Source: Candidatus Kuenenia stuttgartensis (GTDB lineage Bacteria > Planctomycetota > Brocadiia > Brocadiales > Brocadiaceae). Taken from it: a stretch of 32,000 bases of DNA. Of the stretch, positions 838-28,976 are shown piece after piece (the stretch's first letter is position 1; each line of letters starts with the position of its first letter). The position numbers and the translations under genes were made by a program. The notes below the pieces were generated by a model. It searched no databases. It was not told the origin of the DNA and saw nothing but the letters and a program-made list of their open reading frames with translations. The stretch lies in assembly GCF_900232105.1 (NCBI RefSeq), contig NZ_LT934425.1:240001-272000 (forward strand), written 5' to 3'.

Positions 838-3401
838 TATAGCCAAACAAATCAAGTTTTGGAAATTCAGGATAACGCAGCATGTAATACACACCCCGTC
901 TGCTCCGCTACCACCCCTCTTTTTATAGGAGAAAGCCGGAAGTCCCCTCTAAAAAGCTAATCTTTACCCACAAATTTCAAGAGCACCGTAGTTGTACGGC
1001 CAATTGAGCTGAAGGCTAAGTGGTGTAAAGTTCGTAAGCAACTTCAATATCAGCCAAACGTGACATGCCTCGCCAAAGTACTTCACTTCCGGGATGGCCA
1101 TCACCACGGCGACCCAGATGACCGCCAAGTTTACCTAAAAGCCGCACGGCATCATTGAGGCTTGGAGGTAAATCAGGAGGCTCCTTGACCTTGTTCGCAA
1201 AAGTTGTCAATGCTTTCCATTCAGAATCGCTGAAGTAGACAGTACAAGGGACATCAGGTGTTTCTTGTCCTAAAGTAGTCAGGTAATGGATACGCCAAGC
1301 TATAATCATATCAATGGCCAAAGCGTTGCACAGACGACGGGCACTCTCCAACTGCCGGGACTCGACACGACAACCGCTCTTGATAATACGATGATAACAC
1401 TCAATACCCCATCGGCGAGCATACCATTCCAAACGTTCGTAAGCATCTTTTTCATGCTTAACCGCAACTGTAGTTAACAGCATCCATTCTAACCCATCAA
1501 TTCCGATAGGCGGATTGACTTCCTGCGCCAGCACCGCCCACACCCTGACCGCAGGCATATTCTTTTTTAGCATAGGTGGGCGTAGCGTAACAGGCATCGT
1601 TCGTACCATAAGTATTGCCTGACGTGCGGAGCGTTTCTCACTCGGAGGTATCAATATTTCGCGGGTACCTATAACCGGTTGCTGTTCCAGTTTAGTCCAC
1701 AAAAACTCGCATGATTCTTTATCATCAACAACCGTTCTATTGCGCGAACGTTCTGCACGGATCAGCAACTGAGCGCCATCAGGCGTATTATACTGCTCAG
1801 CGAATACCTCGTGAATATCGGCCTCACGATCTGCCACAACCACCAGCAAAGATTTGTTTCGACAGCGTTTCTGTACTTGCGATACTGCATGGTAACTCTC
1901 CACCCATTTCCAGCTTTCCTTCTCTTCGATAGGCTTCTTGTGTCGTTCATGTTTGCTGCCTATTCCGTCCCGCGCCCAGCATTGCACATTCAGAAGTCCC
2001 AAGGGTGTACCACTTTCAGTAAACGCCATCGTATCATGCACCATCAGTCCACGAACTTTTTCACTCTTAGTACCTATCGGCCCTAACCCCTGCGTATTCG
2101 GATGTGTGCTATAATTCAGAGTCGTAGTATCTTGCGCTACCAAAACCAAACTATTCTCCTTCACACGCTCTTCCGTGGCCTCATAATGAGCTTGCAATAT
2201 CGCCTTCCAATCTACATTCTCATTGTCAAGGAATCGGTATGCAGCCTTAGTCGCACTGACTGAGCCGCACGCCTGCGGAATGTTTGCCAAAGGTTTGTCA
2301 TAAAACATACCTGTCATTTCTAAAAGTCTTGAGGTCAATCGTGCATCGCCCAATTTTGTTCCTCCAAGTTCCGCTTCTATCCAATCCCGAGGCTCTTTTT
2401 GTGCCACTCTTTGGCGAACATGTACTTTGCCATCGGCACAACAACACAACACCGCCTGCCATTTCTTTTGCAACGGCATAACATAAACGTCTTTGACCGT
2501 TGCACCTGTTCCTTTTCGTCCTCGACCTTCCGTGCCTCCAACATACTTCCAGTTAGCTGCCCGATAACAGCTTCCGGAAAACCGTCCTCGTTCCACATAG
2601 GTTTCTAAAAGTACAGGACGATATTTATACACTCTTTCCCAATCATCTACCAAACGTGTTTGGCATTTTGCCAATACATGCGATGCCAAACATTTTACTC
2701 TTACCGTAGGCGCTATTAAATACCGACTGTTATTGATAACAAACGTATGATTCCGCTTACGTGCTTCCTCCGTCCATCCTATCCACTCGTCGCGACTTTC
2801 CACCCGTCTGGCACAGGCACTATAACTTAGCCCTCCTATCCATCCGTAATGTTCACTGCGTACAAGATACCGAAGTTGCGCCCCGCATAGGGGCCCACTT
2901 CCAAGATAATGATGCGCTTCTAACATGCTACGCCAAAGTTTCGAATGGAATCTCGTTGTAACCCGTATAATCTCTACGTCACCCAACTCCGCTAGCTCGC
3001 ATGACACTTCCGCAATCGGAGGCGCCTCCGCAGGTTTATTGACTTTTTGAAATGCATAATGCTTGTTCACCTTTGGAAGATTGATCTCTTTACGACGATC
3101 CAATTCCAATAACGCCTTGCGACAACTCATCTCTTGCAAACGGCCCGCTTGATTCCTCCAGTCCATCCATTCGCATACCAGACGCGACAGTTTACGACGC
3201 GATAGACAGGGTTCCTTTTGGATAGTTTCTGATAAACGCTTTATTACATCATCTGAAAATATTCGACCTCCTACTCTAAGCATGTACACAGTGTAACATA
3301 CGGTTAACACGGTGTCCAGCAAAAAATATGGGTCATCCCCAGCTAAAAAGAGGGGATTTAGGGGTGTGTAAATATTCTAAAATCATATTTGTTTGACTAT
3401 A
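838..3401 (-). mobile_element. Tn5-like (IS4 family) insertion sequence with long imperfect subterminal inverted repeats; ends approximate
   Basis: One long transposase ORF is flanked by inverted repeats with indels. Left 838-925 reads TATAGCCAAACAAAT...TACACACCCC...CCCCTCTTTTTA. The reverse complement of right 3344-3401 reads TATAGTCAAACAAAT...TACACACCCC...CCCCTCTTTTTA. No target-site duplication was found. Confidence 0.55.
1016..3283 (-). CDS. Fusion protein: DUF4338 (DruA-like) N-terminal domain + Tn5-like DDE transposase
   Basis: The N-terminal half (GRIFSDDVIKRL...MSCRKALLELDRR...GAQLRYLVRSEHYGWIGGLSYSACARRVESRDEWIGW...RVYKYRPVLLETYV...GSCYRAANWKYVG.TEGRGR) matches the DUF4338 pattern. 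The C-terminal half has the Tn5 N-domain (ELGGTKLGDARLTSRL...KAAYRFLDNENV) and the DDE triad contexts VAQDTTTLNY, VVADREADI and YARRWGIECYHRIIKSGCRVE. The ATG at 3283 is preferred over the TTG at 3322 by comparison with typical DUF4338 N-termini. Confidence 0.85.
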   Translation of the reverse strand: MLRVGGRIFSDDVIKRLSETIQKEPCLSRRKLSRLVCEWMDWRNQAGRLQEMSCRKALLELDRRKEINLPKVNKHYAFQKVNKPAEAPPIAEVSCELAELGDVEIIRVTTRFHSKLWRSMLEAHHYLGSGPLCGAQLRYLVRSEHYGWIGGLSYSACARRVESRDEWIGWTEEARKRNHTFVINNSRYLIAPTVRVKCLASHVLAKCQTRLVDDWERVYKYRPVLLETYVERGRFSGSCYRAANWKYVGGTEGRGRKGTGATVKDVYVMPLQKKWQAVLCCCADGKVHVRQRVAQKEPRDWIEAELGGTKLGDARLTSRLLEMTGMFYDKPLANIPQACGSVSATKAAYRFLDNENVDWKAILQAHYEATEERVKENSLVLVAQDTTTLNYSTHPNTQGLGPIGTKSEKVRGLMVHDTMAFTESGTPLGLLNVQCWARDGIGSKHERHKKPIEEKESWKWVESYHAVSQVQKRCRNKSLLVVVADREADIHEVFAEQYNTPDGAQLLIRAERSRNRTVVDDKESCEFLWTKLEQQPVIGTREILIPPSEKRSARQAILMVRTMPVTLRPPMLKKNMPAVRVWAVLAQEVNPPIGIDGLEWMLLTTVAVKHEKDAYERLEWYARRWGIECYHRIIKSGCRVESRQLESARRLCNALAIDMIIAWRIHYLTTLGQETPDVPCTVYFSDSEWKALTTFANKVKEPPDLPPSLNDAVRLLGKLGGHLGRRGDGHPGSEVLWRGMSRLADIEVAYELYTT

Positions 3402-3761: not shown

Positions 3762-3812
3762 GGACACTTCCCATATTTCTTGATTGATCTGGGAAAATAA
3801 GAGGAAGTGTCC
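3762..3812 (-). terminator. Long hairpin just 3' of the rubrerythrin stop (possible terminator or processing element)
   Basis: The 10-bp perfect arms GGACACTTCC (3762-3771) and GGAAGTGTCC (3803-3812) enclose a 31-nt partly self-complementary loop. The trailing U-tract on the minus strand is poor. Confidence 0.35.
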
Positions 3813-3843
3813 CTATATTTATAATAATGATAAAGGAAAATAC

Positions 3844-4392
3844 TTAAGCAAATTTTTCAAATTTTTCTTTAGTAGCATTGCAAAGAGGGCACGTGTCAGG
3901 AGCTTCACCCTCCAAAGTATAACCACAAACGGAACATACCTGGATTGCATCAAGTTTTGGATCATTATTATTATTCACTGCATCTTTCGCCTTATCAAAC
4001 AGCTTTTTATGCATTTTTTCTGTTCCCAAAGCCCATTCAAAACTTCGTTGTGCATCATTTTCCTTCTGAAATTTTGCAACTTCAATAAAAACAGGGTACA
4101 TTTCATTGATTTCAAACTCTTCCCCCATCAGAGCAAGACCCAGATTCTTTAGCGTTTCACCGGGACCGAAAGTCGCAGCACTATTCGCCACAAATCCACC
4201 GTTCAAATGTTTTAATGTTTCATAATGGCTTCTTGCATGAATCGTTTCTGCATGAGCAATTGCCCTGAATAATCGACCGGCATTAGGATAGCCTTCTTTA
4301 TCAGCCAGGTTCGCAAAATGGGTGTAGCGCATAAAGGCCTGACTTTCACCCCCAAATGCATTAATCATATTCTGTTCTGTCATCTTTCTCAT
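3844..4392 (-). CDS. rbr: Rubrerythrin (ferritin-like diiron domain + C-terminal rubredoxin-like CxxC...CxxC)
   Basis: NAFGGESQAFMRYTHFANLADKEGYPNAGRLFRAIAHAETIHA... is followed by a second E..H helix pair and then CSVCGY...CPLCNATKEKF. A GGGAGG Shine-Dalgarno sits 9 nt upstream of the ATG at 4392. Confidence 0.92.
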   Translation of the reverse strand: MRKMTEQNMINAFGGESQAFMRYTHFANLADKEGYPNAGRLFRAIAHAETIHARSHYETLKHLNGGFVANSAATFGPGETLKNLGLALMGEEFEINEMYPVFIEVAKFQKENDAQRSFEWALGTEKMHKKLFDKAKDAVNNNNDPKLDAIQVCSVCGYTLEGEAPDTCPLCNATKEKFEKFA

Positions 4393-4466
4393 GTGTATAT
4401 TCCTCCCCACTGGTTTAATTATAAAATATGCTTAAAAACTTCCTTCATTGTCACTGGTTTTCATGA

Positions 4467-4757
4467 TTAATCTTTAAATTTTGCCATTGCATTGCTAAAA
4501 GCGGATTTCAGTGCTTCCCAAGCTGTTTCTGACCCTGCTTTGATATCTTCCCAGGATTCTTCTGCTGCAGATTTGAGTTGTTGGAGCTTGCCTTGCAATG
4601 CTTTATAGTCGTTTTCCAATGAATCGATGTTCTTATAGTATTCTATCTTTGCTTCTGCATTTGCCTTGTCCGCTTTGGCCTTTAAATTCTCAATCTTTGA
4701 TCTCCATTCCCTTAGTTGTGCATCTAGCTTTTCTTCATATGCCTTTCTCTTATCCAT
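4467..4757 (-). CDS. Small all-helical coiled-coil protein, function unknown
   Basis: 96-aa ORF with heptad-like K/E/A-rich sequence (KLDAQLREWRSKIENLKAKADKANAEAKIEYYK...). An AGGAG-like SD lies upstream, and the gene is packed between rbr and small membrane protein genes. Confidence 0.6.
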   Translation of the reverse strand: MDKRKAYEEKLDAQLREWRSKIENLKAKADKANAEAKIEYYKNIDSLENDYKALQGKLQQLKSAAEESWEDIKAGSETAWEALKSAFSNAMAKFKD

Positions 4758-4929: not shown

Positions 4930-5005
4930 TTTATATCTCCTTTTAAAATGGTATAAGATGAAACATATTTTGCTTTTCCACACCTTGAAAGTCTGAAAAA
5001 GTATT

Positions 5006-5182
5006 TCAAACCGGCGGTCTTCGCCTCCCGAATAATCCGGCTATCAAAAAGAAGATAAAGACAACTATAAAAATAAAGAACAATATCTTTGCTATCCCTG
5101 CCGACGCAGCAGCCAACCCGCCAAAACCTAAAAAAGCAGCAACAATTGAAATGATAAAAAAAACCAAAGCCCAGTAAAGCAT
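5006..5182 (-). CDS. UPF0391/DUF1328 (YtjA-like) small membrane protein
   Basis: [42 protein letters not shown]... closely follows the YtjA pattern (M..WA..FL.IA..AA.LGFGG.AG.AAGIAKI.F). An AAAGGAG SD precedes the ATG at 5182. Confidence 0.8.
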
Positions 5183-5331
5183 AGTACTATCTCCTTTCAT
5201 TTTAAAAAAAATTTAAATAACGATTTCTACAGTTTTCATGCAAAAAACCCTTAACAACAAATGGGAAAAATATGTTTATCAAAAATGCACCTGCAGTAAG
5301 AATATCTGACAAAAGAATTGACTGACGCAGA

Positions 5332-6291
5332 CTACCATTGTTTTGTTTTGTCGCTATCTTCAACAAATAACTTGCCCGTCACAAGAAGGTTTTGAATTGC
5401 TTCCTGATAATACGGCTTTCCCCTGCTTGCAAGGGAACCAGGAAACGTTGCAAGCGTTATATCTGCACATGATTCTGTAAATTCATTCAGTACAATTGCA
5501 CACCGTTGATCATACGACAAAGTAACATTATGAATCATAGGAAAATCGAAAAGGCTTACCCAAAACTCGGTAGTTTTTTTATCGACTTCCGTAGCATTCT
5601 CCTTTATCGTCCTGACTTCCAGCCTGACTAATATTTCTTTTGATTCGATGTTGACTTTTATTACACTCGTTTTATAGTTTCTCTCGATACCTTCTACCAT
5701 AAGGTTATCTTCCTCTAACTGAAGGGACCCATGGCTTTGTTCAAGCCGTTCAATATCAACCATTCGCGAAAATTTATCGCCGGCTCCTTCCAAAATCAAC
5801 ATCTGCTTTTCAATTATTGTCTGTGCAGTTTGATACAAACGCGTTAAATACTCTTTATGCATATTATTGGATAGAGAAGAAACAGACATTTTTTCTTTCA
5901 TATATTCAAAAAATGGTTTCAGATTAAAACTTTCATGGAAATTATTTGCAATAAGTTCAAAATTTAACATTTGCTCATTCAGTTTAAACGTATCAGCTTC
6001 AGAAAATATTTTTATACTTGAATTGAACAGGTCTTCACGCAATTTATTTTCCGCTTCTTCTTGTTTCCTCATAATACCGGAGTAGACTTGAATTGCTTCC
6101 ATGGTGAGTACTCCTCTTTCTGTAAGTGCTTTAGCAGCCGCCCGTTCCTTTAAATAATTGGAGCCTAAATATCCGGAAACAAGAATAGCCGTTGCAACAA
6201 AAAGACTTCCGCATGGTCCGATATAACAACTGATAAGCCTTTCTACCCTGCTACAATATTGAATATTCGTCTCTTCTTTCTCATATTCCAT
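5332..6291 (-). CDS. Single-pass membrane protein of unrecognised family, paralogue A
   Basis: 319 aa. The N-terminal TM helix is GPCGSLFVATAILVSGYLGSNYL. A helical region follows, then a conserved C-terminal core FPMIHNVTL.YDQRCAIVLNEFTESCADITLATFPGSLA.RGKPYYQE.IQNLL.TGKLF. It aligns end to end with the 6477-7433 product. Confidence 0.75.
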   Translation of the reverse strand: MEYEKEETNIQYCSRVERLISCYIGPCGSLFVATAILVSGYLGSNYLKERAAAKALTERGVLTMEAIQVYSGIMRKQEEAENKLREDLFNSSIKIFSEADTFKLNEQMLNFELIANNFHESFNLKPFFEYMKEKMSVSSLSNNMHKEYLTRLYQTAQTIIEKQMLILEGAGDKFSRMVDIERLEQSHGSLQLEEDNLMVEGIERNYKTSVIKVNIESKEILVRLEVRTIKENATEVDKKTTEFWVSLFDFPMIHNVTLSYDQRCAIVLNEFTESCADITLATFPGSLASRGKPYYQEAIQNLLVTGKLFVEDSDKTKQW

Positions 6292-6476
6292 GCTTATTTT
6301 CTCTGTATAAAGGAATCAACATTCTTTTATCTTACAATCCTATATGAATAGGTTCTGTTTCAAAATAAATAACATTGATTTTAAAAAAGGCATTTCTATT
6401 ACTATTATTTCTCCAGAAAATCGTTACAGTTTTTTTAGACACTTTTCCAACAAAATACTTTGTTCATATTATAAGG

Positions 6477-7433
6477 CTACCAAAGTTCTTTGTTGATATT
6501 TTCATCAAATAATTTTCCTGTCATGAGGAGGTTTTGAATCACTTCCTGATAATAGGGTTTTCCCCTTACGGCCAAAGAACCAGGGAATGTTACCAGTGTG
6601 ATATCCGCACATGATTCTGTAAATTCATTCAATACAATTGCACACCGTTGATCATGTAACAGGGTAACATTATGAATCATAGGAAAATTAAAATAATCTA
6701 GCCTATACTCAGAAATTATTGTATTAACGTCTTCTGAAGATTTTCTCTGTGTTCTTATTTCCAACCTGACCAACATTTCTTTTAATTTATCGTTCGCTTT
6801 TCGTACATAAATTTTATAGTTTCTCTTTATCCCTTCTACAATAAGACTTTCTTCTTCTAGTTGAAGACTTCCCTGAATTTGCCCCAGCCTTTCCAAATCT
6901 ACCATTCGTGAAAATTTCTCACCCTCTCCTTCTAAAACCATCATTTGCTTTTTCATTATCGATTTTGCTGTAGCATATAAACGAGTTAAATATATTTCTT
7001 TCGGGGCATATCCCGAAGAAACTTGTATTTGTTCTCTTATAAAACTAAAAAAAGGTTTCAAATTAAAAGTTTCATGGAAGTTTAAAGCAAGAAGTTCCAA
7101 ATTTAATATTTGTTCTTCAAGTTTACAGGTATCCGGCATAGAAAACACTTTCATACTTGAATTAAACATATCTTCGTGCAATTTATTTTCCGCCTCTTCT
7201 TGTTCCCTCATCATATCGGAGTATATCTGTATTGCCTCCATGGTGAGTACACCCTTTTCTGAACGTGCTTTAGCATCTGCCCGCTCCTTTAAATAATTGG
7301 AACCTAAATATCCTGAAATAAGTATTGCAGTTGCAATAATCAGGCTGCCACATGGCCCTAGATAATGTGTAGTAAACTTTTCAAATTTAGTACCCAAATA
7401 TTTTTCTTTTTTAGCTTTTTCTTTCTCCGCCAT
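6477..7433 (-). CDS. Single-pass membrane protein of unrecognised family, paralogue B
   Basis: 318 aa with the same architecture as 5332-6291, roughly 60-65% identical by eye. Its start lies 2 nt after the stop of the upstream 7436-7774 gene. Confidence 0.75.
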   Translation of the reverse strand: MAEKEKAKKEKYLGTKFEKFTTHYLGPCGSLIIATAILISGYLGSNYLKERADAKARSEKGVLTMEAIQIYSDMMREQEEAENKLHEDMFNSSMKVFSMPDTCKLEEQILNLELLALNFHETFNLKPFFSFIREQIQVSSGYAPKEIYLTRLYATAKSIMKKQMMVLEGEGEKFSRMVDLERLGQIQGSLQLEEESLIVEGIKRNYKIYVRKANDKLKEMLVRLEIRTQRKSSEDVNTIISEYRLDYFNFPMIHNVTLLHDQRCAIVLNEFTESCADITLVTFPGSLAVRGKPYYQEVIQNLLMTGKLFDENINKELW

Positions 7434-7435
7434 GC

Positions 7436-7774
7436 TTATCTTCTCCTTGCCAGGAAAGAACCGTTTTTTTCTTCTAAAACGAAATCATATTGGATCGCAT
7501 TCTCATAGATATATATTAAAATCGGTTCTGACATTAATTCTTCATTCCGTATTATAAGAAGGCCACGTCCTTTCCCCGGCACATATAATGAATAGGATCC
7601 ATATTGTGCACATTTTGAAGAGTAAGTCTTTCCGGATGTTAGCATTTCAAGTTTTATCTCTGACCCTTCTGCTATTGGCTTTCCATCTTTTTTTATTGTT
7701 CCGTAAATTTCTCCCGAAAAAGCAATAGTAGTATTAAGCAACAGAAACAATATAACTATTAAATATTTTTTCAT
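7436..7774 (-). CDS. Small secreted beta-sandwich protein (carboxypeptidase-regulatory-like pattern)
   Basis: Signal peptide MKKYLIVILFLLLNTTIAFSGE is followed by IYGTIKKDGKPIAEGSEIKL...GSYSLYVPGKGRGLLII, typical of CarboxypepD_reg-like domains. An AAGGA SD precedes the ATG at 7774. Confidence 0.6.
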   Translation of the reverse strand: MKKYLIVILFLLLNTTIAFSGEIYGTIKKDGKPIAEGSEIKLEMLTSGKTYSSKCAQYGSYSLYVPGKGRGLLIIRNEELMSEPILIYIYENAIQYDFVLEEKNGSFLARRR

Positions 7775-7810
7775 TCCCGATTCCTTCATTGCCTCCAAAT
7801 GCTTAATCGA

Positions 7811-9511
7811 TTAGTAGGTATGCATTACTTTTAAAGGAGTTGTCATGATATAATCATTACTGGTCTGTGCCCCATGGCATTTAATACATGATGACAGCTT
7901 ACCGGCCAGCTTGATGGTCTTCGTCTCTCCGCCTTCTTCTTTCTCTGTGACCATAACGTCACCATTCGGTTCATATTTAATCCAGAACCAATCCTTCGCA
8001 TCAGGATCAAAACCTTTTATTTTCTGCATTACCGTTATAGAATCAATGTTTTTATCCTTTCTATAATTCTCTTTAATTATTATCGCACCTGGTTGTAATT
8101 CACCTTTCTTATGTTTAATTGCCTCATGGGCGAGATCGTTTACATATGTGGTAAGCCAAAACCCATGTGGTTCTGTTCCTTCATAAAAAGCATTTTTCCC
8201 GGGCCACATTTTCCAGTTTTCCCGATACTTTTCATTTTGCATTCTTTCCCATAGTTCTTTCGCCATTAATTCATAAACAGGCTCGGTTCCTTTCGGTTTT
8301 TCCTCTGTTATTTCTTTTTTTGTAATACTTTTTACAAAACTTGTATAAATATAATCATTAAGAAACTGGTTTTTGTGACAAGAAATGCAGTTATCGACTT
8401 TACCAGCCAAAGAAATAGTTTTCCCATATTTTTCTTCAGTCATTATTGCACCATTTGGTTTAAACTTGATCCAAAACCAATCATTGTTTTCAGGATTAAA
8501 ACCTTTTATCTTCTTCATTACGGTAATGTATTCTAAACTTTTATCAAACATGTAGTTTTCAGTAACGATAACAGCATCAAAAGGCATGGACTCTTTCTTA
8601 CTGACAATAGAATCATAAGCCACTTCATTTACATACGTGCTCAATAAAGTCCCATGTGGATCAATTCCATTATAGAAAGCCTCTTTATCTGGCCACATTT
8701 TCCAACTTTCCTGGTAATTGTCACTCTTCATTTTATTCCAGATTTCAGTAGCTATCCTTTTGGCATTCATAACTTCTTCTTCTTTCTTTTTTGTCTCGCT
8801 TATTTCTTTCCCTATGTCCACAATCGGACTTGTATAAATATAATCATTGTCGGTCTGCAAACTATGGCATTCTATACAATCAGCAACTTTTCCTGCCAAC
8901 TTTAATGCCTTATTATTTTTTTTAACAGTTGTAATTTCACCATCAGTTTCATATTTTACCCAAAACCAATCATTCGCAAGCGGATTGAAGCCTTTTATTT
9001 TATGCATTACTGTTATAAAGGTAATGTTTCTATCTGATGTATAATTCTCAGTAATAATTATCGCTCCAGAGGACAGCTTTCCTTTCTTATTTTTAATTGC
9101 ATCATATGCAATATCATTCACATAGGTAGTCAGCAATTCCCCATGTGGCTGCCTTCCTTTATAAAAGTCTCCCGTATCCGGCCATAACTTCCAATTCAGT
9201 TTGTAATTCTCTTTGTGTATCGTATCCCAGAGTTCCTTTGCTTTCCCCTCCGCATCTGTTATTATCATTTCCGTTTTTTCTGTTTCAGGCAATCCTTTCT
9301 CCGTCTCCAAAGATGTTCCTTCTCCTGTAATTCCGGTCTTTTCTTCTTCAGAAACGTATGGTGATTTCTCTTTAGCAGACGCAGGTGTACTTTTTTCGAC
9401 CGTTTCTGTTGATTCTTCAGATTTGTATCCCCTACCTATTTTTTTACATCCTATTATGGGGAAAAAACCAATTGCAATTACAACTAATAATGATAATAAA
9501 TATTTTTTCAC
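7811..9511 (-). CDS. Lipoprotein with three tandem cytochrome-P460/c'-beta-like domains (three CXXCH)
   Basis: The lipobox is FFPIIGC. The GTG at 9511 has a GAGGG SD; an alternative ATG lies at 9526. An E/K/T/S-rich linker follows. A block of about 140-150 aa is then repeated three times: W(K)(L/M)WP...PHG..L.TYVN...ENY...ITVM.KIKGF.P...DWFW.K...LAGK...C-I-x-C-H...NDYI. The haem motifs are CIECH (8864-8878), CISCH (8375-8389) and CIKCH (7874-7888). Confidence 0.75.
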   Translation of the reverse strand: MKKYLLSLLVVIAIGFFPIIGCKKIGRGYKSEESTETVEKSTPASAKEKSPYVSEEEKTGITGEGTSLETEKGLPETEKTEMIITDAEGKAKELWDTIHKENYKLNWKLWPDTGDFYKGRQPHGELLTTYVNDIAYDAIKNKKGKLSSGAIIITENYTSDRNITFITVMHKIKGFNPLANDWFWVKYETDGEITTVKKNNKALKLAGKVADCIECHSLQTDNDYIYTSPIVDIGKEISETKKKEEEVMNAKRIATEIWNKMKSDNYQESWKMWPDKEAFYNGIDPHGTLLSTYVNEVAYDSIVSKKESMPFDAVIVTENYMFDKSLEYITVMKKIKGFNPENNDWFWIKFKPNGAIMTEEKYGKTISLAGKVDNCISCHKNQFLNDYIYTSFVKSITKKEITEEKPKGTEPVYELMAKELWERMQNEKYRENWKMWPGKNAFYEGTEPHGFWLTTYVNDLAHEAIKHKKGELQPGAIIIKENYRKDKNIDSITVMQKIKGFDPDAKDWFWIKYEPNGDVMVTEKEEGGETKTIKLAGKLSSCIKCHGAQTSNDYIMTTPLKVMHTY

Positions 9512-9557
9512 TTTTATCCCTCTCATTAATTTTTTGATTTAATTTTAGTTTGCATTC

Positions 9558-9637
9558 GTAATTATTCAGCGTAAACGATACACGGCTCGTTCCCAAACCT
9601 TGTACTGAACATAGTATCGTTTACGCTGAATAGTTAC
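9558..9637. mobile_element. 80-bp MITE-like element carrying IS66-type ends
   Basis: GTAATTATTCAGCGTAAACGATAC (9558-9581) and the reverse complement of 9614-9637 (GTAACTATTCAGCGTAAACGATAC) form 24-bp terminal inverted repeats with one mismatch. The first ~14 nt equal the ends of the adjacent IS66-family element. Confidence 0.7.
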
Positions 9638-9733
9638 CTTTTAAGAGCATCGTCTCTGTCACCTGTTCTCCATCATAAACTTTAGCAAATTAAAGCATCC
9701 CCGCTCAAAATTGAGGCTAATTGCAAAATTTTG
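9638..9733 (-). pseudogene. Radical-SAM enzyme pseudogene, downstream remnant between the IS66 element and the MITE
   Basis: After removing the IS and one TSD copy, the reverse-strand reading continues ...INRPYKILQLASILSG..., hits a stop, and resumes in another frame as FAKVYDGEQVTETMLLKG. It is then cut by the MITE. Confidence 0.6.
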
Positions 9734-11457
9734 GTATCTATTCAGCGTATTTTCACCCACTGTCGCTACGAGCTAGCAAAATCAGGCAATTCGCCACGGA
9801 ATAGCATCTGTAATGCCCGGCTCAAATTTACACCTTGTTTTCGACAGGTCGAGAGATAACTCCGAATGCGGCAGAAAATTTTCGCTCCCTCCAAAGAACG
9901 AAAACAGCCAGATATCTTCTGCTGAACCTTCGTCATCCTGATATCGTTTTCTGCCAAATTGTTCGTAAAGGGAACATTTTTATTGTCCATAAACCTCAAC
10001 ACATCACCCTCATACGTCCTCAATCGTTCCAGAAGATTCCGTGCCTTTGTCCTTTTTACCCTCCCCCTTTTTCCCTTACGGTTCGTTTCATCAGGAGGAG
10101 GGCTTTCGGCTTCTGCGTTTTGGAGTATCTTCCTATACCTTTGCCGGTATTTTTCTGACTCATCAGTTCCCAGCATTCCCCCGGCATCACTCGTCGCACG
10201 GTTTATCTCTTTAAGTAATGCTTTCATCTCTTTCGCCCACTCCTGCTTATTATCATCTTCCCACACACCATCCAATTCCCTCAAGTGGTGTGCATTACAC
10301 AACGCATGCGTACAGTTGCTATAGGTGTAATACGACTTCAAATGGTCGTGGCAAAGAATCCCCTTAAATTCAGGTAATATCCCGATACTATTTATCGCTT
10401 CTGTTCCACGTCTTTCATGCGGGAAAAAGTACGTCCACAAACTATTGGATGCACTGTGCAACCAATACCTGTCTCCATTCTTGTTGATACTAGTTTCATC
10501 CACATGCATCACCTCTGATTTTGCAAGTTCTTCCCTGGCTCTCACTTCGAAGGGTTCCAATGACTCGTAGGCTTCCCTGTTAAAGTTGTAAACAGAACCT
10601 TCACTCAGCGGTATCCCAATCTGTCCTTCAAAATACTCCTGTATCCTCTTGTAGGGTATCAATTGATACTGCGACATATAGACTGCATGCGCTTTCAAAT
10701 CCGGACCATACTGCACCGCCTTTGTTACCCCTTCCGGAAATGACGCTACAATCCGGTTCCCTTTCGCATCCTCTACTACCTCTGCACGATACTCCGTTAC
10801 TACACGCGAAATCTTTATATCAAACACCTGGCGTGCTTCGTAACCTACCACCTTGTATTTGCTGCGCGGATACTTCCTCCGGTCTACTTTTATTACTTCC
10901 ACCTCATCAGGATTGTCTACCTTTTTGAGCGTTACTCCATCACGGCCCTTTTGCCCGCCTGCCTTCCTTTCACCCTTCGCCTTGCTTTCTTTCTTGCGAT
11001 TCGGATCGCTTGAGGGAGGCTTGCTGCTGTTGCGGCTGTTCCGGTTCAGACGTCCTACCAGCAGTGTTATCAATAATACCAACAACTCTATCATTGACCT
11101 CACCGCCGGTGACAGCCCTTTCTCTTCTGAAAGCAGCTTCTCTACTTTTTGGAGTGTTGCGTCTACGTCTATATTCTCTATCGTCAATGGATGATACCTG
11201 TATATATAATTAGCCTGAAATTATCTACTGCATCTATTATACTGCAGGTTTTTTCACCCTTTTCTTTCGCTCTATAACACACCACAAGGGCTCGAAATTC
11301 TATAACTGAACAGACCCCACACACGTCTCTATGCACGGCATCTTGCTGCCTGTTTTTAACGCATTTACAAACATATACATACACTACCAGGTAAATTGCT
11401 TGTTTGTAACATTTCTGCTGTCAAGTAAATTCTAAATTATTTTCGCTGAATAGTTAC
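9734..11457 (-). mobile_element. Complete single-ORF IS66-family insertion sequence (1724 bp) with 8-bp target-site duplication
   Basis: The ends are GTATCTATTCAGCG (9734-9747) and the reverse complement of 11444-11457, GTAACTATTCAGCG, which fits the GTAA-type IS66 terminus. The flanking direct repeat AAATTTTG is identical at 9726-9733 and 11458-11465. Confidence 0.88.
9766..11187 (-). CDS. IS66-family transposase (TnpC-type)
   Basis: 473 aa with an N-terminal leucine-zipper-like helix, a basic region (NSSKPPSSDPNRKK...), MHVDETSINKNG, GILCHDHLKSY, ALCNAHHLREL, and C-terminal VPFTNNLAENDIRMTKVQQKISGCFRS. All are typical IS66 TnpC blocks. The start codon is TTG. Confidence 0.9.
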   Translation of the reverse strand: MTIENIDVDATLQKVEKLLSEEKGLSPAVRSMIELLVLLITLLVGRLNRNSRNSSKPPSSDPNRKKESKAKGERKAGGQKGRDGVTLKKVDNPDEVEVIKVDRRKYPRSKYKVVGYEARQVFDIKISRVVTEYRAEVVEDAKGNRIVASFPEGVTKAVQYGPDLKAHAVYMSQYQLIPYKRIQEYFEGQIGIPLSEGSVYNFNREAYESLEPFEVRAREELAKSEVMHVDETSINKNGDRYWLHSASNSLWTYFFPHERRGTEAINSIGILPEFKGILCHDHLKSYYTYSNCTHALCNAHHLRELDGVWEDDNKQEWAKEMKALLKEINRATSDAGGMLGTDESEKYRQRYRKILQNAEAESPPPDETNRKGKRGRVKRTKARNLLERLRTYEGDVLRFMDNKNVPFTNNLAENDIRMTKVQQKISGCFRSLEGAKIFCRIRSYLSTCRKQGVNLSRALQMLFRGELPDFASS

Positions 11458-11833
11458 AAATTTTGTAAGGCCTGTTGATTTTGCGCCGGACATCTGCACG
11501 CCAGATGAGGGATACATGGTAATCGCCGCAATCTTTATCCCATACGATTTCAGCGCTTCAATCTCCAGACCAAGATTGACATCCAGGGAGGTTCACCGTC
11601 AGGCACAAAAGTAAGGTAATCTATGTATTCTCCAGATTCCCTTAGCTTCTCTATTTTCTCATCCGCTTCTTTCAGAATAACATCAGGTTTATAAAATTCA
11701 CGTCGCTTAACAAGCCTTCGCATCGTGTACCCCAACTGGCAATAAACACATGAATAGGTGCAAACTTTCGGTGGAATATTGTTAATACCAAGACTGCGCC
11801 TTTATCCACCCTACTAAAGACTGTTTTGGCCAA
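11458..11833 (-). pseudogene. Radical-SAM enzyme pseudogene, N-terminal part (multiple frameshifts, interrupted by IS66 element)
   Basis: The reverse strand reads RSLGINNIPPKVCTYSCVYCQLG, with the CX3CX2C cluster at 11739-11762, then ...EYIDYLTFVPDGEP. Similarity continues only after frame changes (LDVNLGLEIEALKSYGIKIAAIT, then SLIWRADVRRKINRPYKI). An in-frame stop lies just upstream of RRSLG. Confidence 0.7.
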
Positions 11834-12224: not shown

Positions 12225-13235
12225 CTAATGCCCTGATGGTTGTTTGCCTCTTTTTTCAAGGGCTTCTTCAAATGTGTAGATTTTTCCACCAAATCCTTTT
12301 TGGAATTTTACTGCATCATCCTTTTTGCCAAAGGCGATCCAGTTATCAGAACAAGCAGGAACGGCATCGCTATGATGGAGCATGTACATCTTTGAAACAT
12401 CCATCCATTCGCCGCTAATAAAATCCCTTGCCCTAACGGATGCTATTTTGTCTTTATTTCCTGCATGTTCCCATAACCCACAGTGTGGACATATATATGA
12501 TACTGTTTCACCATTGGTATAGGTAATCTGGTAATCAGTATTTTCATTCCCTTTCAGCGGCATATGACACAAAGGGCATCTCACCTCTTTTTGCACCGCC
12601 AAGTAGCCCTCACATTTCATGTTTGTATTAAAGTATGCGTTACTTCCTTTAAGTTCAAATTTTCGTTCTCCATCATGAAAACTGGCAGAAACAACTCTTC
12701 CCTGCATAAATACCCGATTAAGTTTGCTTTTGGTGTTTGTATGCATTACAGGGGTTGCGTTGTCACCTCCAAGCACAGGTTCCGTTGTTAATACCATAAT
12801 CTTACCACCATCGACTGTCACAGCGAAATTACCACCCTTGCCAGAGAATGCTATTTTCGCACTACCAGCGCTTTCTATCTTACCATATGCGGCGCAAATG
12901 ATTTTTGCAAATGCTATAGCTGCTTGTTTTTGTTCTTCATTTTTTGCATCAACATAAATACGCACCCATTCTCCCGGTTTCGTTGCGTATGCAATTTTTA
13001 CCCCTGTCAGGTCTGTACCCTTAAATATACTTTCTTCCAAAGACAGAGCGGCCACCGTCTGGCACCCCATGTTGAAAGAAATCAATTCGCAAGGGCAGGG
13101 AATATCACAACTGCACCCTTCTACAAAAACACCTTCAATATGATATGTTTCCTCCGCAGTAACATTTGAGACAAAGAACAGAGGAATACCAACAAAAAAC
13201 AGTATCAATAAAAGAATATAATATTTTGTACGCAT
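12225..13235 (-). CDS. Secreted fusion protein: DUF1326 domain + Cys4 ribbon + NosL-like domain
   Basis: A signal/anchor MRTKYYILLLILFFVGIPLFFVSNVTA comes first. The DUF1326 pattern is YHIEGVFVEGCSCDIPCPCEL...GCQ. A CPLCHM...CPHCG ribbon follows. The NosL-like C-terminus is ARDFISGEWMDVSKMYML..SD...IAFGKKDDAVKFQKGFGGKIYTFEEA. Confidence 0.7.
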   Translation of the reverse strand: MRTKYYILLLILFFVGIPLFFVSNVTAEETYHIEGVFVEGCSCDIPCPCELISFNMGCQTVAALSLEESIFKGTDLTGVKIAYATKPGEWVRIYVDAKNEEQKQAAIAFAKIICAAYGKIESAGSAKIAFSGKGGNFAVTVDGGKIMVLTTEPVLGGDNATPVMHTNTKSKLNRVFMQGRVVSASFHDGERKFELKGSNAYFNTNMKCEGYLAVQKEVRCPLCHMPLKGNENTDYQITYTNGETVSYICPHCGLWEHAGNKDKIASVRARDFISGEWMDVSKMYMLHHSDAVPACSDNWIAFGKKDDAVKFQKGFGGKIYTFEEALEKRGKQPSGH

Positions 13236-13355: not shown

Positions 13356-14741
13356 TCATACCTTTAATGGTAGCCCGGCATTGGACCATGCCTGCATCCC
13401 ACCGGCAAGATTGTGTACGTTTGTATAGCCATGTAGTTGTAAGTAACTTGCCCCTATACTCCCGCGATATCCCACGCGACAGGTAACTATAATTTTTTCT
13501 TCTTTGGGCAAATCCACTTCTTTAAGAAGCATGTCCGATAGCGGCAAAAGCTCCGCTTCTTCTATATGCCCTTTGTTCCATTCAGATTCCGACCTGACGT
13601 CTATTATATACTGATACGTACTACTCTTAATTTCATCGCGCAATTCCTGCGCCGAGATCTGAGGAAGTCTTTGTATAGGAAACCCCTGCTCCTGCCAGGC
13701 CGAAATGCCGCTTTGCAAATATCCAATAATATTGTCGTAACCAATCCTGTAAAGGATGGAGCGCATATCTCTATACTTTGTGTCTTCGGTAAAGACCAGG
13801 AGGATGTTAGACTCAGGCTCCACCGCCATACCGATCCAGTTCGCCATTTGACTCCCAAAGCCGATATTAATACTTCCCGGAATATGTACGCCGCCATAGG
13901 CAGATGCATCCCTTGTATCAATGATCTTCGCTCCTCTTTTCAGTGCTTCCCTAAATTGCAAGGGTGTCAGAGGTCTGTCATCGTTGAATTTATCCAGCCA
14001 TGGTGCACCTTTCATGTTCATTGATATAATGTGAGAAAAACTCTTTGGGCGATCAGGGTATTCCCGCATTAAAGATTTTTTAAATTCATCCAAAGAATCA
14101 AGACGTAGAAGAGGGTTCGCGTGGCGTTCATATCCCAGCGTTGTGCTGGTTTTAGAACTAATGCCTTTTCCGCAAAGAGAGCCTTGTCCATGTGCCGGAT
14201 AAACCCCTAAACGATCGGGTAGTTTACCTAATTTTTTATAAATACTTTCATAAAGATTTTTTACCTGTTTTTCTAAAAGTTCTTTACCTGCCAGGTCAGG
14301 CCTTCCTACATCCCCGACAAACAGAAGATCACCGGTTAGCATAAACCATGGTTCCTCCTCCGACCTGCTTGTGTCTTTTACTAAAAGCGAGATGGAATGC
14401 GGCGTGTGTCCGGGAGTATGTAGCACCTCAAGTATTGCCGTACCTAATTCAATAGTGTCTCCTTCTTTTAAAGTCTTGTGTTTAAAGGCAACGGGCGCTT
14501 TCTCGTAAAAATAGATATCAGCGCCTGTACGGGCGGTGATTTCCAAATTGCCGCTTATATGATCGGCATGGATATGTGTTTCGATAACGTGTGTTATCTT
14601 CATTCCCTGATTTCTCGTTATATCAAGGTATTCCTGTATCTCTCTTTTAGGGTCAATAACTGCCGCAACTTTTGCAGCGGGGCAACCAATCACATAAGAA
14701 AGGCAACCGATCCCAGGAGTTTCAATTTGTTTGAAATACAT
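13356..14741 (-). CDS. MBL-fold persulfide-dioxygenase-like domain fused to two rhodanese domains (CstB-like architecture)
   Basis: The metallo-beta-lactamase motif is THIHADHISG. The C-terminus has two rhodanese-like modules, the last with the active-site loop CRVGYRGS. A GGCAAGGAG SD precedes the ATG at 14741. Confidence 0.85.
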   Translation of the reverse strand: MYFKQIETPGIGCLSYVIGCPAAKVAAVIDPKREIQEYLDITRNQGMKITHVIETHIHADHISGNLEITARTGADIYFYEKAPVAFKHKTLKEGDTIELGTAILEVLHTPGHTPHSISLLVKDTSRSEEEPWFMLTGDLLFVGDVGRPDLAGKELLEKQVKNLYESIYKKLGKLPDRLGVYPAHGQGSLCGKGISSKTSTTLGYERHANPLLRLDSLDEFKKSLMREYPDRPKSFSHIISMNMKGAPWLDKFNDDRPLTPLQFREALKRGAKIIDTRDASAYGGVHIPGSINIGFGSQMANWIGMAVEPESNILLVFTEDTKYRDMRSILYRIGYDNIIGYLQSGISAWQEQGFPIQRLPQISAQELRDEIKSSTYQYIIDVRSESEWNKGHIEEAELLPLSDMLLKEVDLPKEEKIIVTCRVGYRGSIGASYLQLHGYTNVHNLAGGMQAWSNAGLPLKV

Positions 14742-14801
14742 GTTAATTCTCCTTGCCGGGTATTTGAGCATTTGGCAATAGTTCACCCACCTATAAATAA
14801 A

Positions 14802-15656: not shown

Positions 15657-17066
15657 TCATAATTGTCTCAGGAAGGCAACGAGGTCATTTTTCTCTTCCA
15701 CATTCAGGTTTGTTTCTAACACAAGGTTAAAAAATTCCACAGTATCTTCCAGCGTCAACAATCTCCCGTCGTGCAGATAAGGGGGCGAATCTTTAATTCC
15801 CCTGAGAGGGAATGTCTTGATAGGCCCTTCTGCGCGGATATACTGACCATTGATCACCTGCGGCTTGTAGAATCTCTCAACCTGAAGATCGTGCATAAGG
15901 TTATCGGTGTAATATGGTGCAGGGTGACATTTAAAGCATTTTCCTTTGCTGAAAAATATTGCCTGTCCCCTTATTTCAGAATCGGTAGCCTTTTTTGTAT
16001 CTAGGCGGCCAAAAATATCAAGTTTTGGCGCTGGAGGAAAATCCAGAAGCGACTGAAACTCTGCCATGAAATGTACCTGGCTGCCGCGTTCAAGAATATT
16101 TGTACCTTTCTTTATTGCCGTCAGAATATCTCCGTCAAAATATGCGGCTCGCTGCTCAAACTCAGTGAAATCCTCTATGGATTTTAATGCGCGTTGCGAC
16201 CCGAAAAGCCGCTGAATATTAACCCCACGTAACGTTGGGGTATCGAGGCGATTTCTATGAGATTGCGGACGGATATCTCCCACCAGATGCGTGGCTGCCG
16301 ATGTGTGGCCATTCAGGTGACAATCAAAACAGGTTACTCCCTGACTGGGCTTTTCACTCTTCCTGTCAGCAGTTGCATTAAACTGCTGCTGAGGAAACTG
16401 TGTTACCAAAAGCCGCAGGCCCTCAAGTTGTTTAGGATTTAAAAGACCATTAAACAATTCATAATAGTTTTCCAAAGTCACCACTTTCCCCTGAGACACA
16501 TCTCCTTTATCCTTATGAGTAGTAAGAAAAATGGCAGGCGGAAATTCTGGCAAAAAATACTCCGGTATGTCAAAATCCAGATCAAAGCGCTTCAGCCGTG
16601 GGAATTTTTCCACCTGTATTTGAGAAAACAACATCCCGCCGGTGGCATGGTTTGGATGGGGCAGAGGAAGATACGGAAATACATTTTTTTCTTTTATATC
16701 TTCCGGCGTCATAGTTGACAGTTTTTCCCATGACATTCCATCTTTCAACCGCGCAGTGGGCCCTACCGGCAAAGGTTTTCCACGTGACATGGTGACGTCG
16801 TTCGTTACTTTCATGGAGAGATCATAGCGTTCATTAAGCAAATCCATATGGCGTTTCATAATGCCGTCCTTCTTTGCTTTATCATGTTCAATAGCCTTAT
16901 CAATCGGTTCTTCTATGACTGAAGAATAGCTAGATTCCCTACTTTCCTGTTTTATAATTGGCTTGTCAGAAATCGCGCCTTCCTGTGCATGGGAAAACTT
17001 CAATCCTGCACAAAATAATATAGTAATAGTCAAAAGTCTTATGCCGTATTTCCTTTCAATAACCAT
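15657..17066 (-). CDS. Dihaem cytochrome c peroxidase / MauG-family protein
   Basis: Signal peptide, then two haem c motifs (GVTCFDCHLNGH and KGKCFKCHPAPYYTDN) at CCP/MauG-like spacing. The conserved C-terminus is PLRGIKDSPPYLHDGRLLTLEDTVEFF. There is a strong AGGAGGAGG SD. Confidence 0.85.
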   Translation of the reverse strand: MVIERKYGIRLLTITILFCAGLKFSHAQEGAISDKPIIKQESRESSYSSVIEEPIDKAIEHDKAKKDGIMKRHMDLLNERYDLSMKVTNDVTMSRGKPLPVGPTARLKDGMSWEKLSTMTPEDIKEKNVFPYLPLPHPNHATGGMLFSQIQVEKFPRLKRFDLDFDIPEYFLPEFPPAIFLTTHKDKGDVSQGKVVTLENYYELFNGLLNPKQLEGLRLLVTQFPQQQFNATADRKSEKPSQGVTCFDCHLNGHTSAATHLVGDIRPQSHRNRLDTPTLRGVNIQRLFGSQRALKSIEDFTEFEQRAAYFDGDILTAIKKGTNILERGSQVHFMAEFQSLLDFPPAPKLDIFGRLDTKKATDSEIRGQAIFFSKGKCFKCHPAPYYTDNLMHDLQVERFYKPQVINGQYIRAEGPIKTFPLRGIKDSPPYLHDGRLLTLEDTVEFFNLVLETNLNVEEKNDLVAFLRQL

Positions 17067-17069
17067 ACC

Positions 17070-17795
17070 CTACCTCCTCCTTTTAAGTTCAAAATTAACG
17101 TTTACCGTCTTTCCCTCTTCCACCACAACCTCTTTGGACAAAGACATAAGCCTTTCGTGCCAGGTTTTTAGCACATATTTACCAGGTGGAACACCTTCAA
17201 TACTATAATTTCCTGCATCGTCGGTAACTGCAAAATACGGATTCTCAAATGAAACGACAAATCCGGACATTTCTGCATGTACATTGCAAAGCAGCGGGGT
17301 TTCTCCCACAACATCGAATAAGACTTCTTTCACAACGCCGGCGGGATAGGTGCCAAGGTTAAATTGCATTGCAGCAGTTGGGGGAGAGAAAACATTGTGT
17401 CGTACAGCATCACTATTCGGAAAGTCAACAACGGTGCCTTTTTGTATTGCTATTACATGCGGAACATAGGTTAAATTCAATTGGTCTACTACCGCATGTT
17501 CTTTTGGCGGATCAAATACGTTATCTCCAACTTTTTCAATAAACACAATAGCATCGGCATTTGTCCTTGATCTCGCACAGGTAACAACCCCTTTAATGGT
17601 TCCCGCATTCTCGATTTCCGGAACATTTTTAACCGCTTTTTTTAACTCCAATTGTGCGGCGCTAAGTTTCTTCTGTAGCGCTGCCGCTTCTTCAGCGCTT
17701 AAAGTCTCTCCCTCCTCTGCGTATACCAACGGCACTGCATTAAGCGTAAATACAATGAAAAACAAGACAAAAAAGTTCATCACATTTTTTTTCAT
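17070..17795 (-). CDS. Secreted amicyanin-like cupredoxin domain fused to a carboxypeptidase-regulatory-like domain (the 'MauG-associated' protein type)
   Basis: YVPHVIAIQKGTVVDFPNSDAVRHNVFS...LLCNVHAEMSGFV gives the His...Cys-x2-His-x2-Met spacing of a type-1 Cu site; CNVHAEM is at 17268-17288. The C-terminal YFAVTDDAGNYSIEGVPPGKYVLKTWHE is CarboxypepD_reg-like. The start is uncertain (17795 or 17825). Confidence 0.7.
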   Translation of the reverse strand: MKKNVMNFFVLFFIVFTLNAVPLVYAEEGETLSAEEAAALQKKLSAAQLELKKAVKNVPEIENAGTIKGVVTCARSRTNADAIVFIEKVGDNVFDPPKEHAVVDQLNLTYVPHVIAIQKGTVVDFPNSDAVRHNVFSPPTAAMQFNLGTYPAGVVKEVLFDVVGETPLLCNVHAEMSGFVVSFENPYFAVTDDAGNYSIEGVPPGKYVLKTWHERLMSLSKEVVVEEGKTVNVNFELKRRR

Positions 17796-17841
17796 TTGTA
17801 CTTTTCTCTCTTTTGCAAAAAACATTTAATAATTAACCTTA

Positions 17842-28876: not shown

Positions 28877-28905
28877 TGATAATGATTAAGGGCTAGGGAT
28901 GATCA

Positions 28906-28976
28906 CCCGAAAAGCCGCAATCCTGAGCGGGTGCCCTTTATCTACTTTCAGGGGTTATTCACAGGAGGATAACGTT
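28906..28976 (+). promoter_or_regulatory. Conserved ~70-nt 5' leader, copy A (upstream of the TPR gene)
   Basis: CCCGAAAAGCCGCAATCCTGAGCGGGTGCCCTTTATCTACTTTCAGGGGTTATTCACAGGAGGATAACGTT-ATG is about 90% identical to 30054-30121. Similarity starts and stops exactly at the leader. It contains the hairpin (G)CCGC-AATCCTGA-GCGG, a CCCT...AGGG pair and an AGGAGG SD. Confidence 0.6.

Follow-up and report, generated by a model that had tools for sequence, protein, structure and literature searches.

In a 32,000-nucleotide stretch of the Candidatus Kuenenia stuttgartiensis genome (hereafter the window), four genes on the minus strand, designated g1 to g4, encode a lipoprotein with three cytochrome P460-family domains, a small secreted beta-sandwich protein and two paralogous membrane proteins. 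The original prediction from this DNA treated the four as one functional unit centred on the haem protein. Our studies lean instead towards a composite locus, in which a widespread envelope cassette, g2-g3, has been joined by a P460 partner acquired in the Brocadiaceae. What has stayed stable in evolution is the g2-g3 pair; the P460 gene neighbours it in the Brocadiaceae only, and g4 is a duplicate specific to Kuenenia. The four genes, each confirmed as an open reading frame (ORF), are as follows (aa, amino acids; nt, nucleotides).

7811-9526, minus strand: g1, 571 aa; lipoprotein with three tandem cytochrome P460-family domains
7436-7774, minus strand: g2, secreted 112-aa CarboxypepD_reg/transthyretin-like beta-sandwich
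6477-7433, minus strand: g3, 318 aa; single-pass membrane protein of a large uncharacterised family
5332-6291, minus strand: g4, 319 aa; g3 paralogue, a tandem duplicate found in Kuenenia only

The g3 protein is 99% identical to proteins named from Kuenenia stuttgartiensis, and exact copies sit on Kuenenia contigs; no additional copies of the g1, g2 or g3 families were found within the window. The predicted spacing of 2 nt between g2 and g3 and of 185 nt between g3 and g4 was confirmed. A predicted 12-nt gap between g1 and g2 is obtained only if g2 starts at TTG 7798 (120 aa); for the 112-aa product with which that gap had been reported, the start is ATG 7774 and the distance 36 nt. A third possible start, ATG 7789, would give 117 aa; ATG 7774 has AAGGA ahead of it and yields the form of most database copies. 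Translation of g1 from ATG 9526 gives 571 aa, and databases also take a GVK start (566 aa). All four products are exported or membrane-anchored, as had been proposed, by a lipobox (g1), a signal peptide (g2) or an N-terminal hydrophobic helix (g3 and g4). Because the ratio of nonsynonymous to synonymous substitution rates (dN/dS) between K. stuttgartiensis and K. hertensis lies between 0.13 and 0.24 (g1 0.19, g2 0.13, g3 0.18, g4 0.24), all four genes are taken to be under purifying selection and maintained.

The g2-g3 pair and its products

The two membrane proteins had been described as orphans, a description that does not survive database searching. A word search returned 138 homologues of g3, relatives were present in 401 species-level genomes, and an exhaustive search recovered 1,343 representative clusters at 50% identity (E <= 0.001), 976 of them at E <= 1e-10. 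Gene order was examined at 83 g3 loci, 80 of which came from the genome scan that gave the 401 genome hits and 3 from contig look-ups. At 71 of the 83, the gene that immediately precedes g3 on its strand is a g2 homologue, most commonly at a distance of 2 nt, as in Kuenenia, and with 4-nt overlaps at several loci. Such 2-nt or overlapping junctions suggest translational coupling of the pair, which is probable, and hence co-production of the two proteins, possibly as a complex. Twelve loci lack g2: three are cut at a contig end, three are from Brocadiaceae and six are from Gammaproteobacteria, and the latter represent a second, independent loss of g2 besides that in Brocadia. At these six loci, all in metagenome-assembled genomes (MAGs; L054, L058, L066, L073, L076 and L082), g3 stands downstream of ftsH-folP-glmM in three cases (L054, L066 and L082), and an AIM24 and/or M48 peptidase gene is directly upstream of g3 in four (L054, L058, L073 and L076).

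Clustering of all neighbour ORFs at the 83 loci revealed no recurrent partner except g2, and the neighbours that were scanned against Pfam are unrelated genes for housekeeping, transport or secreted proteins (among them znuABC, ftsH-folP-glmM-AIM24-M48, methyltransferase, G6PD, UDP-glucose dehydrogenase, MFS, TolC-like and type IX secretion system cargo genes). The pair needs no other fixed neighbour and is therefore best regarded as a self-contained envelope unit. A P460 gene is present at 4 of the 83 loci, which belong to Kuenenia and Brocadia only, and the g4 duplicate occurs in Kuenenia only. Conservation of gene neighbourhood, which had been suggested as a check on the four-gene unit, was found for g2 and g3, and for g3 and P460 at these four loci. 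The g3 carriers seen are all MAGs of diderm lineages from at least 10 phyla, and include Ignavibacteriota, Bacteroidota, Chlorobi, Acidobacteriota, NC10, Nitrospirota, Nitrospinota, Gemmatimonadota, Calditrichota, Gammaproteobacteria and Planctomycetota.

Members of the g3 family are about 300 aa long, share 40-47% identity between phyla and have 28 invariant columns in an alignment of 101 sequences. Invariant polar or charged residues include N118, H120, E121, K126, Q163, E168, R204, R223, E242, D261, R263 and C264; their number argues for a dedicated site of binding or catalysis and against a simple spacer role. The proposed paralogy of g3 and g4 was borne out by 65% identity, and g4 retains all of the family-invariant residues. 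A scan of the 101 members against Pfam-A and NCBIfam gave no model, with sub-threshold DUF4004 matches in 16 members (best E 4e-04) and scattered noise, and a search of PDB sequences with the g3 profile identified no relative. Ten longer family members (372-590 aa), inspected for hints from fused domains, contained no Pfam domain. One 535-aa member (P0323) carries an insertion of about 230 aa between the last beta-strands that is extremely rich in His, Asp and Glu and is reminiscent of periplasmic metal-binding tracts; at three related Ignavibacteria loci (L003, L011 and L014) znuABC precedes the pair.

The AlphaFold2 model of g3 has a predicted local distance difference test score (pLDDT) of 80 overall and above 90 for aa 110-280. 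A hydrophobic helix, with its transmembrane part at about aa 25-47, runs into a long helix (aa 29-98). Three more helices come next, the chain being helical up to about aa 168, then an antiparallel sheet of seven strands (aa 172-284) and finally a helix at the C-terminus. In 87 of 101 members, the N-terminal flank of this helix has more Lys and Arg than the C-terminal one, a bias that suggests an N-in, C-out topology and would place the conserved domain in the same compartment as g1 and g2. Foldseek searches with this model gave no confident structural match, the best PDB match being CcmF at a template modelling (TM) score of 0.16, and a viral structure library yielded no meaningful match.

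For g2, the signal peptide and beta-sandwich fold that had been predicted were both confirmed. A Pfam scan of the window's own g2 gave no match. Searching with a profile of the g2 homologues that stand beside g3 elsewhere yielded 553 proteins; of the 92 family members that were aligned, 76 match CarboxypepD_reg (PF13620; E <= 0.01). The AlphaFold2 model (pLDDT 88) shows an eight-strand sandwich behind the signal peptide, for which Foldseek returned transthyretin-like sandwiches at a probability of 1.0. One likeness is to chain Y of PDB 6HIF, the Kuenenia hydrazine dehydrogenase assembly factor (target-normalised TM-score 0.65, root-mean-square deviation (rmsd) 3.0 A), although at 10% identity this likeness is at the level of fold only. 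Rather than a module of an enzyme or receptor, g2 is a stand-alone secreted domain paired with g3. The Kuenenia protein lacks the near-invariant TD motif of its family (C-A instead) and the GKC motif (GRG instead), and is still under purifying selection (dN/dS 0.13). Based on the coupled junction, the g2 signal peptide and the topology rule applied to g3, we infer that the g2 and g3 proteins assemble into a complex on the outer side of the cytoplasmic membrane.

The P460 lipoprotein and the Brocadiaceae locus

The Pfam model Cytochrome_P460 (PF16694) matches g1 in three stretches, with a score of 84.9 bits where the cut-off is 27 (E 7.9e-24). The protein begins with the lipobox IIGC, in which Cys27 is the lipid-anchor residue. 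Its three domains, which are 51-57% identical among themselves and each end in one CxxCH motif, are these.

8816-9253, minus strand: g1 domain 1, aa 92-237; CIECH at aa 217-221; Thr159 at the position of the cross-link Lys
8327-8767, minus strand: g1 domain 2, aa 254-400; CISCH at aa 380-384; Thr322 at the cross-link position
7826-8278, minus strand: g1 domain 3, aa 417-567; CIKCH at aa 547-551; Lys485 in GAIIIKENY

The predicted triple P460 lipoprotein is therefore supported by the three Pfam matches, the three CxxCH motifs and the lipobox, but a Lys at the cross-link position is present in domain 3 only. Close copies of g1 have already been named 'cytochrome P460 family protein' by NCBI, and therefore the family assignment is not new. 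What is new here is the triple P460 architecture with a single Lys-bearing domain; a search of the accessible literature by locus tag, by accession and by P460 plus anammox found no publication on these genes, and we did not find the spread of the cross-link Lys over the g1 domains described before.

A direct search of PDB sequences with g1 gave nothing significant, and the comparison with solved P460 proteins was made through profiles and motifs. In the cytochrome P460 (CytL) of Nitrosomonas europaea the cross-link residue is Lys70 (index 71 in 2JE2 and 96 in 8GAR), and in the P460 of Nitrosomonas sp. AL212 it is Lys106; a PDB search with an N. europaea P460 fragment placed both within GTV(T/I)VKE. 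A profile of the Kuenenia and Brocadia domains sets G-A-I-I-I-x-E-N-Y against this motif, in an alignment that is short and weak but has the motif in register. The variable position is Thr159, Thr322 and Lys485 in Kuenenia domains 1 to 3, and T, A and K in the Brocadia orthologue, such that Lys is confined to domain 3 in both. The closest mono- or di-domain relatives of g1, which are from metagenomes, all have Lys at this position.

Like g1, the N. europaea CytL (2JE2/2JE3, 8GAR) and the AL212 P460 (6AMG) belong to PF16694, are exported and carry a C-terminal CxxCH in each domain, with which the g1 motifs align in 2JE2/8GAR. The Lys of g1 domain 3, in a G-x-(I/V)-x-(I/V)-K-E strand motif, aligns with their cross-link Lys70/Lys106, and g1 domains 1 and 2 have Thr at that position. 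They are soluble mono-domain proteins, while g1 has three domains in one lipoprotein, and their direct sequence similarity to g1 is very weak (profile E about 0.05). The second-sphere residue Glu97 of the N. europaea protein gates hydroxylamine oxidation (PMC6457333); no counterpart could be assigned in g1. The P460 fold without the Lys cross-link is found in cytochrome c'-beta (for example 7EAD/8BRK, which are entered as Cytochrome_P460 domain proteins), and g1 domains 1 and 2 resemble it in having the P460-family fold signature, a CxxCH, no Lys and a length of about 145 aa. The g1 domain profile spans nearly the whole 135-aa 7EAD chain, but this match is weak (E 1.2), and, unlike cytochrome c'-beta, the Lys-less domains of g1 are fused in tandem to a Lys-bearing one. 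The most fitting description of g1, we infer, is a pair of c'-beta-like domains ahead of a single candidate true P460 domain.

When metagenomes were scanned with the g1 alignment, 65 loci with mono- or di-domain relatives and no triple-domain orthologue came back, and neither g2 nor g3 was near the P460 relative at any of them. This P460 subfamily is thus generally independent of the pair, a result that speaks to the mono- and di-domain forms. Adjacency of g1 and g3 was observed in K. stuttgartiensis, Kuenenia sp. Bin_40, K. hertensis and one Brocadia sp. Over positions 9557-4462, the window is collinear at 95% identity with Kuenenia sp. Bin_40 and at 85-88% with K. hertensis, in a block that takes in g1-g4 and the downstream genes for DUF1328, DUF3309 and 96-aa coiled-coil proteins. 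Homology among the Kuenenia genomes ends 31 nt upstream of g1, exactly at a hairpin (9558-9637) that resembles a miniature inverted-repeat transposable element (MITE), and beyond this point the upstream flanks of g1 differ among species. In Brocadia a P460 gene (553 aa, 55-56% identical to g1) lies 147 nt upstream of a single g3 homologue (47% identical), in quite other surroundings and without g2, and a short contig from the Brocadiaceae carries g3 by itself.

In Kuenenia sp. Bin_40, a relative of the MITE-like hairpin also stands upstream of g1 (locus L004, 5625-5708). About 1.1 kb upstream of the P460 gene at the same locus is a 304-aa multi-pass membrane protein (3803-4717, plus strand) that looks like a formate/nitrite transporter (FNT). 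An FNT-type transporter was considered as a member of the unit and rejected, the gene being absent from the window.

Surroundings of the locus and other features of the window

The accessory setting that had been described for the four genes was confirmed, with insertion sequence (IS) elements on both sides and a cluster of rubrerythrin and small proteins.

9558-9637, no strand: MITE-like hairpin of 80 nt; 24-nt arms 96% complementary; 32 nt upstream of the g1 ATG
9731-11461, minus strand: IS66-family element; transposase ORF 9766-11187; the element ends resemble the MITE arms
1016-3322, minus strand: Tn5-like transposase with Tnp_DNA_bind, DDE_Tnp_1 and Dimer_Tnp_Tn5
3844-4410: rubrerythrin; genes for small DUF3309, DUF1328 and 96-aa coiled-coil proteins lie downstream of g4

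A scan of 5000-9900 for promoters and terminators gave a number of sites not above that of shuffled sequence. None of the four proteins matched a PADLOC defence model at E <= 1. At the N-terminus of the Tn5-like transposase, a domain of about 190 aa gives a match to the Druantia protein DruA (PF14236, E 1.7e-35).

Farther from the locus, 12225-13235 and 13356-14786 (both minus strand) encode a secreted DUF1326 and NosL-like protein beside a metallo-beta-lactamase-fold protein with two rhodanese domains, a gene pair possibly connected with sulfur or copper handling. At 15657-17066 (minus strand) lies the gene for an exported protein of 469 aa that has two CxxCH motifs (CFDCH and CFKCH) and no Pfam match at E <= 0.001; genes for an exported protein of 251 aa (17070-17825) and a response regulator come after it. 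The only Rfam match in the window above its gathering score is an int-alpA RNA (RF02996; 28886-28953, plus strand; 37.2 versus 35.8 bits), which overlaps the start of a TPR-repeat ORF (28899-29849).

Competing explanations, working model and significance

A dedicated four-gene unit, with the P460 haem protein as its catalytic or sensing part and g2, g3 and g4 as its scaffold, sensor or electron-relay partners, would agree with the shared strand, the tight spacing and the export or anchoring of every product, as well as with the collinearity of g1-g2-g3-g4 across three Kuenenia species whose upstream flanks differ and with the persistence of P460-g3 adjacency in Brocadia. We nevertheless consider it quite unlikely. 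The pair is found at 70 or more loci in many phyla (at least 10) without an adjoining P460, cytochrome or other CxxCH protein, none of the 65 related P460 loci has g2 or g3, and g2, g3 and g4 contain no haem, Fe-S or other redox motif, g3 having a single conserved Cys. Brocadia has no g2, and g4 is confined to Kuenenia. The phyletic pattern already weakens this idea. Because the pair occurs elsewhere without P460, P460 without the pair, and g3 by itself in a Brocadiaceae contig, g2-g4 are not dedicated P460 accessories. What stands of the original prediction is the conserved pairing of g2 with g3 and the adjacency of g1 to g3 in three Kuenenia and one Brocadia, and at most the proteins of unknown function were recruited as P460 partners in one family. 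The main rival to the composite locus is coincidental adjacency, i.e. that a P460 gene and a g2-g3(-g4) cassette with unrelated functions both landed in one IS-rich accessory region of an ancestral Brocadiaceae genome. The Tn5-like and IS66/MITE elements that bound the region, the autonomy of the pair and of the P460 relatives elsewhere, and the contig with g3 alone are consistent with such an origin. It appears somewhat unlikely to us in view of the survival of the adjacency across the divergence of Kuenenia and Brocadia (g1 55-56% and g3 47% identical) with flanks that are not conserved, the short intergenic distances, and the purifying selection on all four genes.

Two further proposals concern g3 itself. 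As a membrane-tethered binder of a hydrophobic ligand (START/Bet v1, lipocalin or hot-dog-like, with a curved sheet against helices), g3 would handle envelope lipids or lipoproteins together with g2, with no part for P460. The seven-strand antiparallel meander and helices predicted at pLDDT above 90, the many low-ranking Foldseek matches to START/Bet v1, allene oxide cyclase, lipocalin and hot-dog folds, and the occurrence of the pair only in diderm lineages among the loci seen all fit this proposal, but the matches do not exceed a probability of 0.54 or a TM-score of 0.27 (for the START/Bet v1-like proteins Kirola and MSMEG_0129, probabilities of 0.16-0.41 and TM-scores of at most 0.23 with the full-length g3 model), the invariant residues are mostly charged or polar and do not line a greasy pocket, and lipid-transport genes are not linked to the pair, which together make it improbable. 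Alternatively, g3 might be a haem-handling or cytochrome-maturation accessory akin to the periplasmic domains of CcmF and CcsBA that helps in maturing or loading c-type haem proteins such as g1. CcmF (6ZMQ) and CcsBA (7S9Y) are its top Foldseek matches (E 6.8e-05, probability 0.96, and E 0.018, respectively) and, like g3, are membrane proteins with a beta-rich periplasmic part. However, they have many transmembrane helices where g3 has one, global superposition on CcmF is poor (TM-scores 0.16/0.10, rmsd 20 A), and profile similarity is lacking, hhalign probabilities being below 1% (0.2% for E. coli CcmF and 0.4% for CcmE), on which ground kinship with the haem lyases was rejected. Furthermore, g3 has no WWD motif and no conserved pair of haem-ligand His residues, and cytochrome or ccm genes are not enriched beside the pair. 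A role in haem handling is accordingly barely tenable.

For the composite locus, we propose the following working model. Its core would be g2-g3, an ancient and widely distributed two-gene operon. A single helix at the N-terminus would anchor the g3 protein, whose conserved domain of helices and beta-sheet most likely faces the periplasm. In the Brocadiaceae, a lipid-anchored protein with three P460 domains would have been placed directly upstream of this core and have stayed there, and the g2-g3 complex may have been recruited to work with it in anammox bacteria, a reading that follows from the maintenance of the adjacency across two genera despite rearranged flanks. In the light of published work on CytL and cytochrome c'-beta (PMC6457333, PMC5872139), domain 3 of g1, with its Lys, would be a candidate catalytic P460 haem for hydroxylamine or nitric oxide (NO) chemistry by analogy with CytL, and the resemblance of domains 1 and 2 to cytochrome c'-beta suggests NO binding or electron relay. 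Membrane-tethered g3 (and g4), together with g2 in Kuenenia, would dock or organise the g1 lipoprotein on the same membrane face, and g4 would be a later Kuenenia duplicate maintained by selection.

Several observations weigh against the composite locus and this model of it. The adjacency of g1 and g3 amounts to four loci from one family only, and because the Brocadia locus has no g2 and the short Brocadiaceae contig has neither g1 nor g2 beside g3, a three-way complex cannot be obligatory. Within the Kuenenia locus, the 185-nt gap sets g4 apart, and the sole promoter-like match within it is no better than chance. The topology of g3 derives from the positive-inside rule alone. Since its fold has no confident match, any statement about g3 activity is conjecture. 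Finally, with its TD and GKC motifs lost, the role of Kuenenia g2 may have drifted; this loss may reflect a changed role once the P460 gene arrived.

The metabolism of anammox bacteria passes through hydroxylamine and NO as central, toxic intermediates, and to our knowledge the monohaem P460 family has not been studied in these organisms. With one Lys-bearing and two Lys-less P460 domains in a single protein, g1 offers a natural experiment on the role of the cross-link. The g2-g3 pair is a large one, spread over more than 400 species and about 1,340 clusters, and its g3 component has no curated family or structural relative. For domain registration and functional studies of the diderm envelope the pair makes a well-defined target, and it is worth recording, if not surprising by itself since many such pairs exist. 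The assumption that genes of unknown function beside a haem protein are its accessories is mostly wrong at this locus. A bolder form of the model, which we regard as unlikely, is that the pair forms a new membrane-tethered periplasmic complex, with a fold that has no solved relative, that was co-opted in anammox bacteria to dock g1 with its one true P460 haem and two c'-beta-like haems. If true, this would represent a previously unrecognised, surface-bound module for handling hydroxylamine and NO, distinct from the soluble HOX/HAO enzymes.

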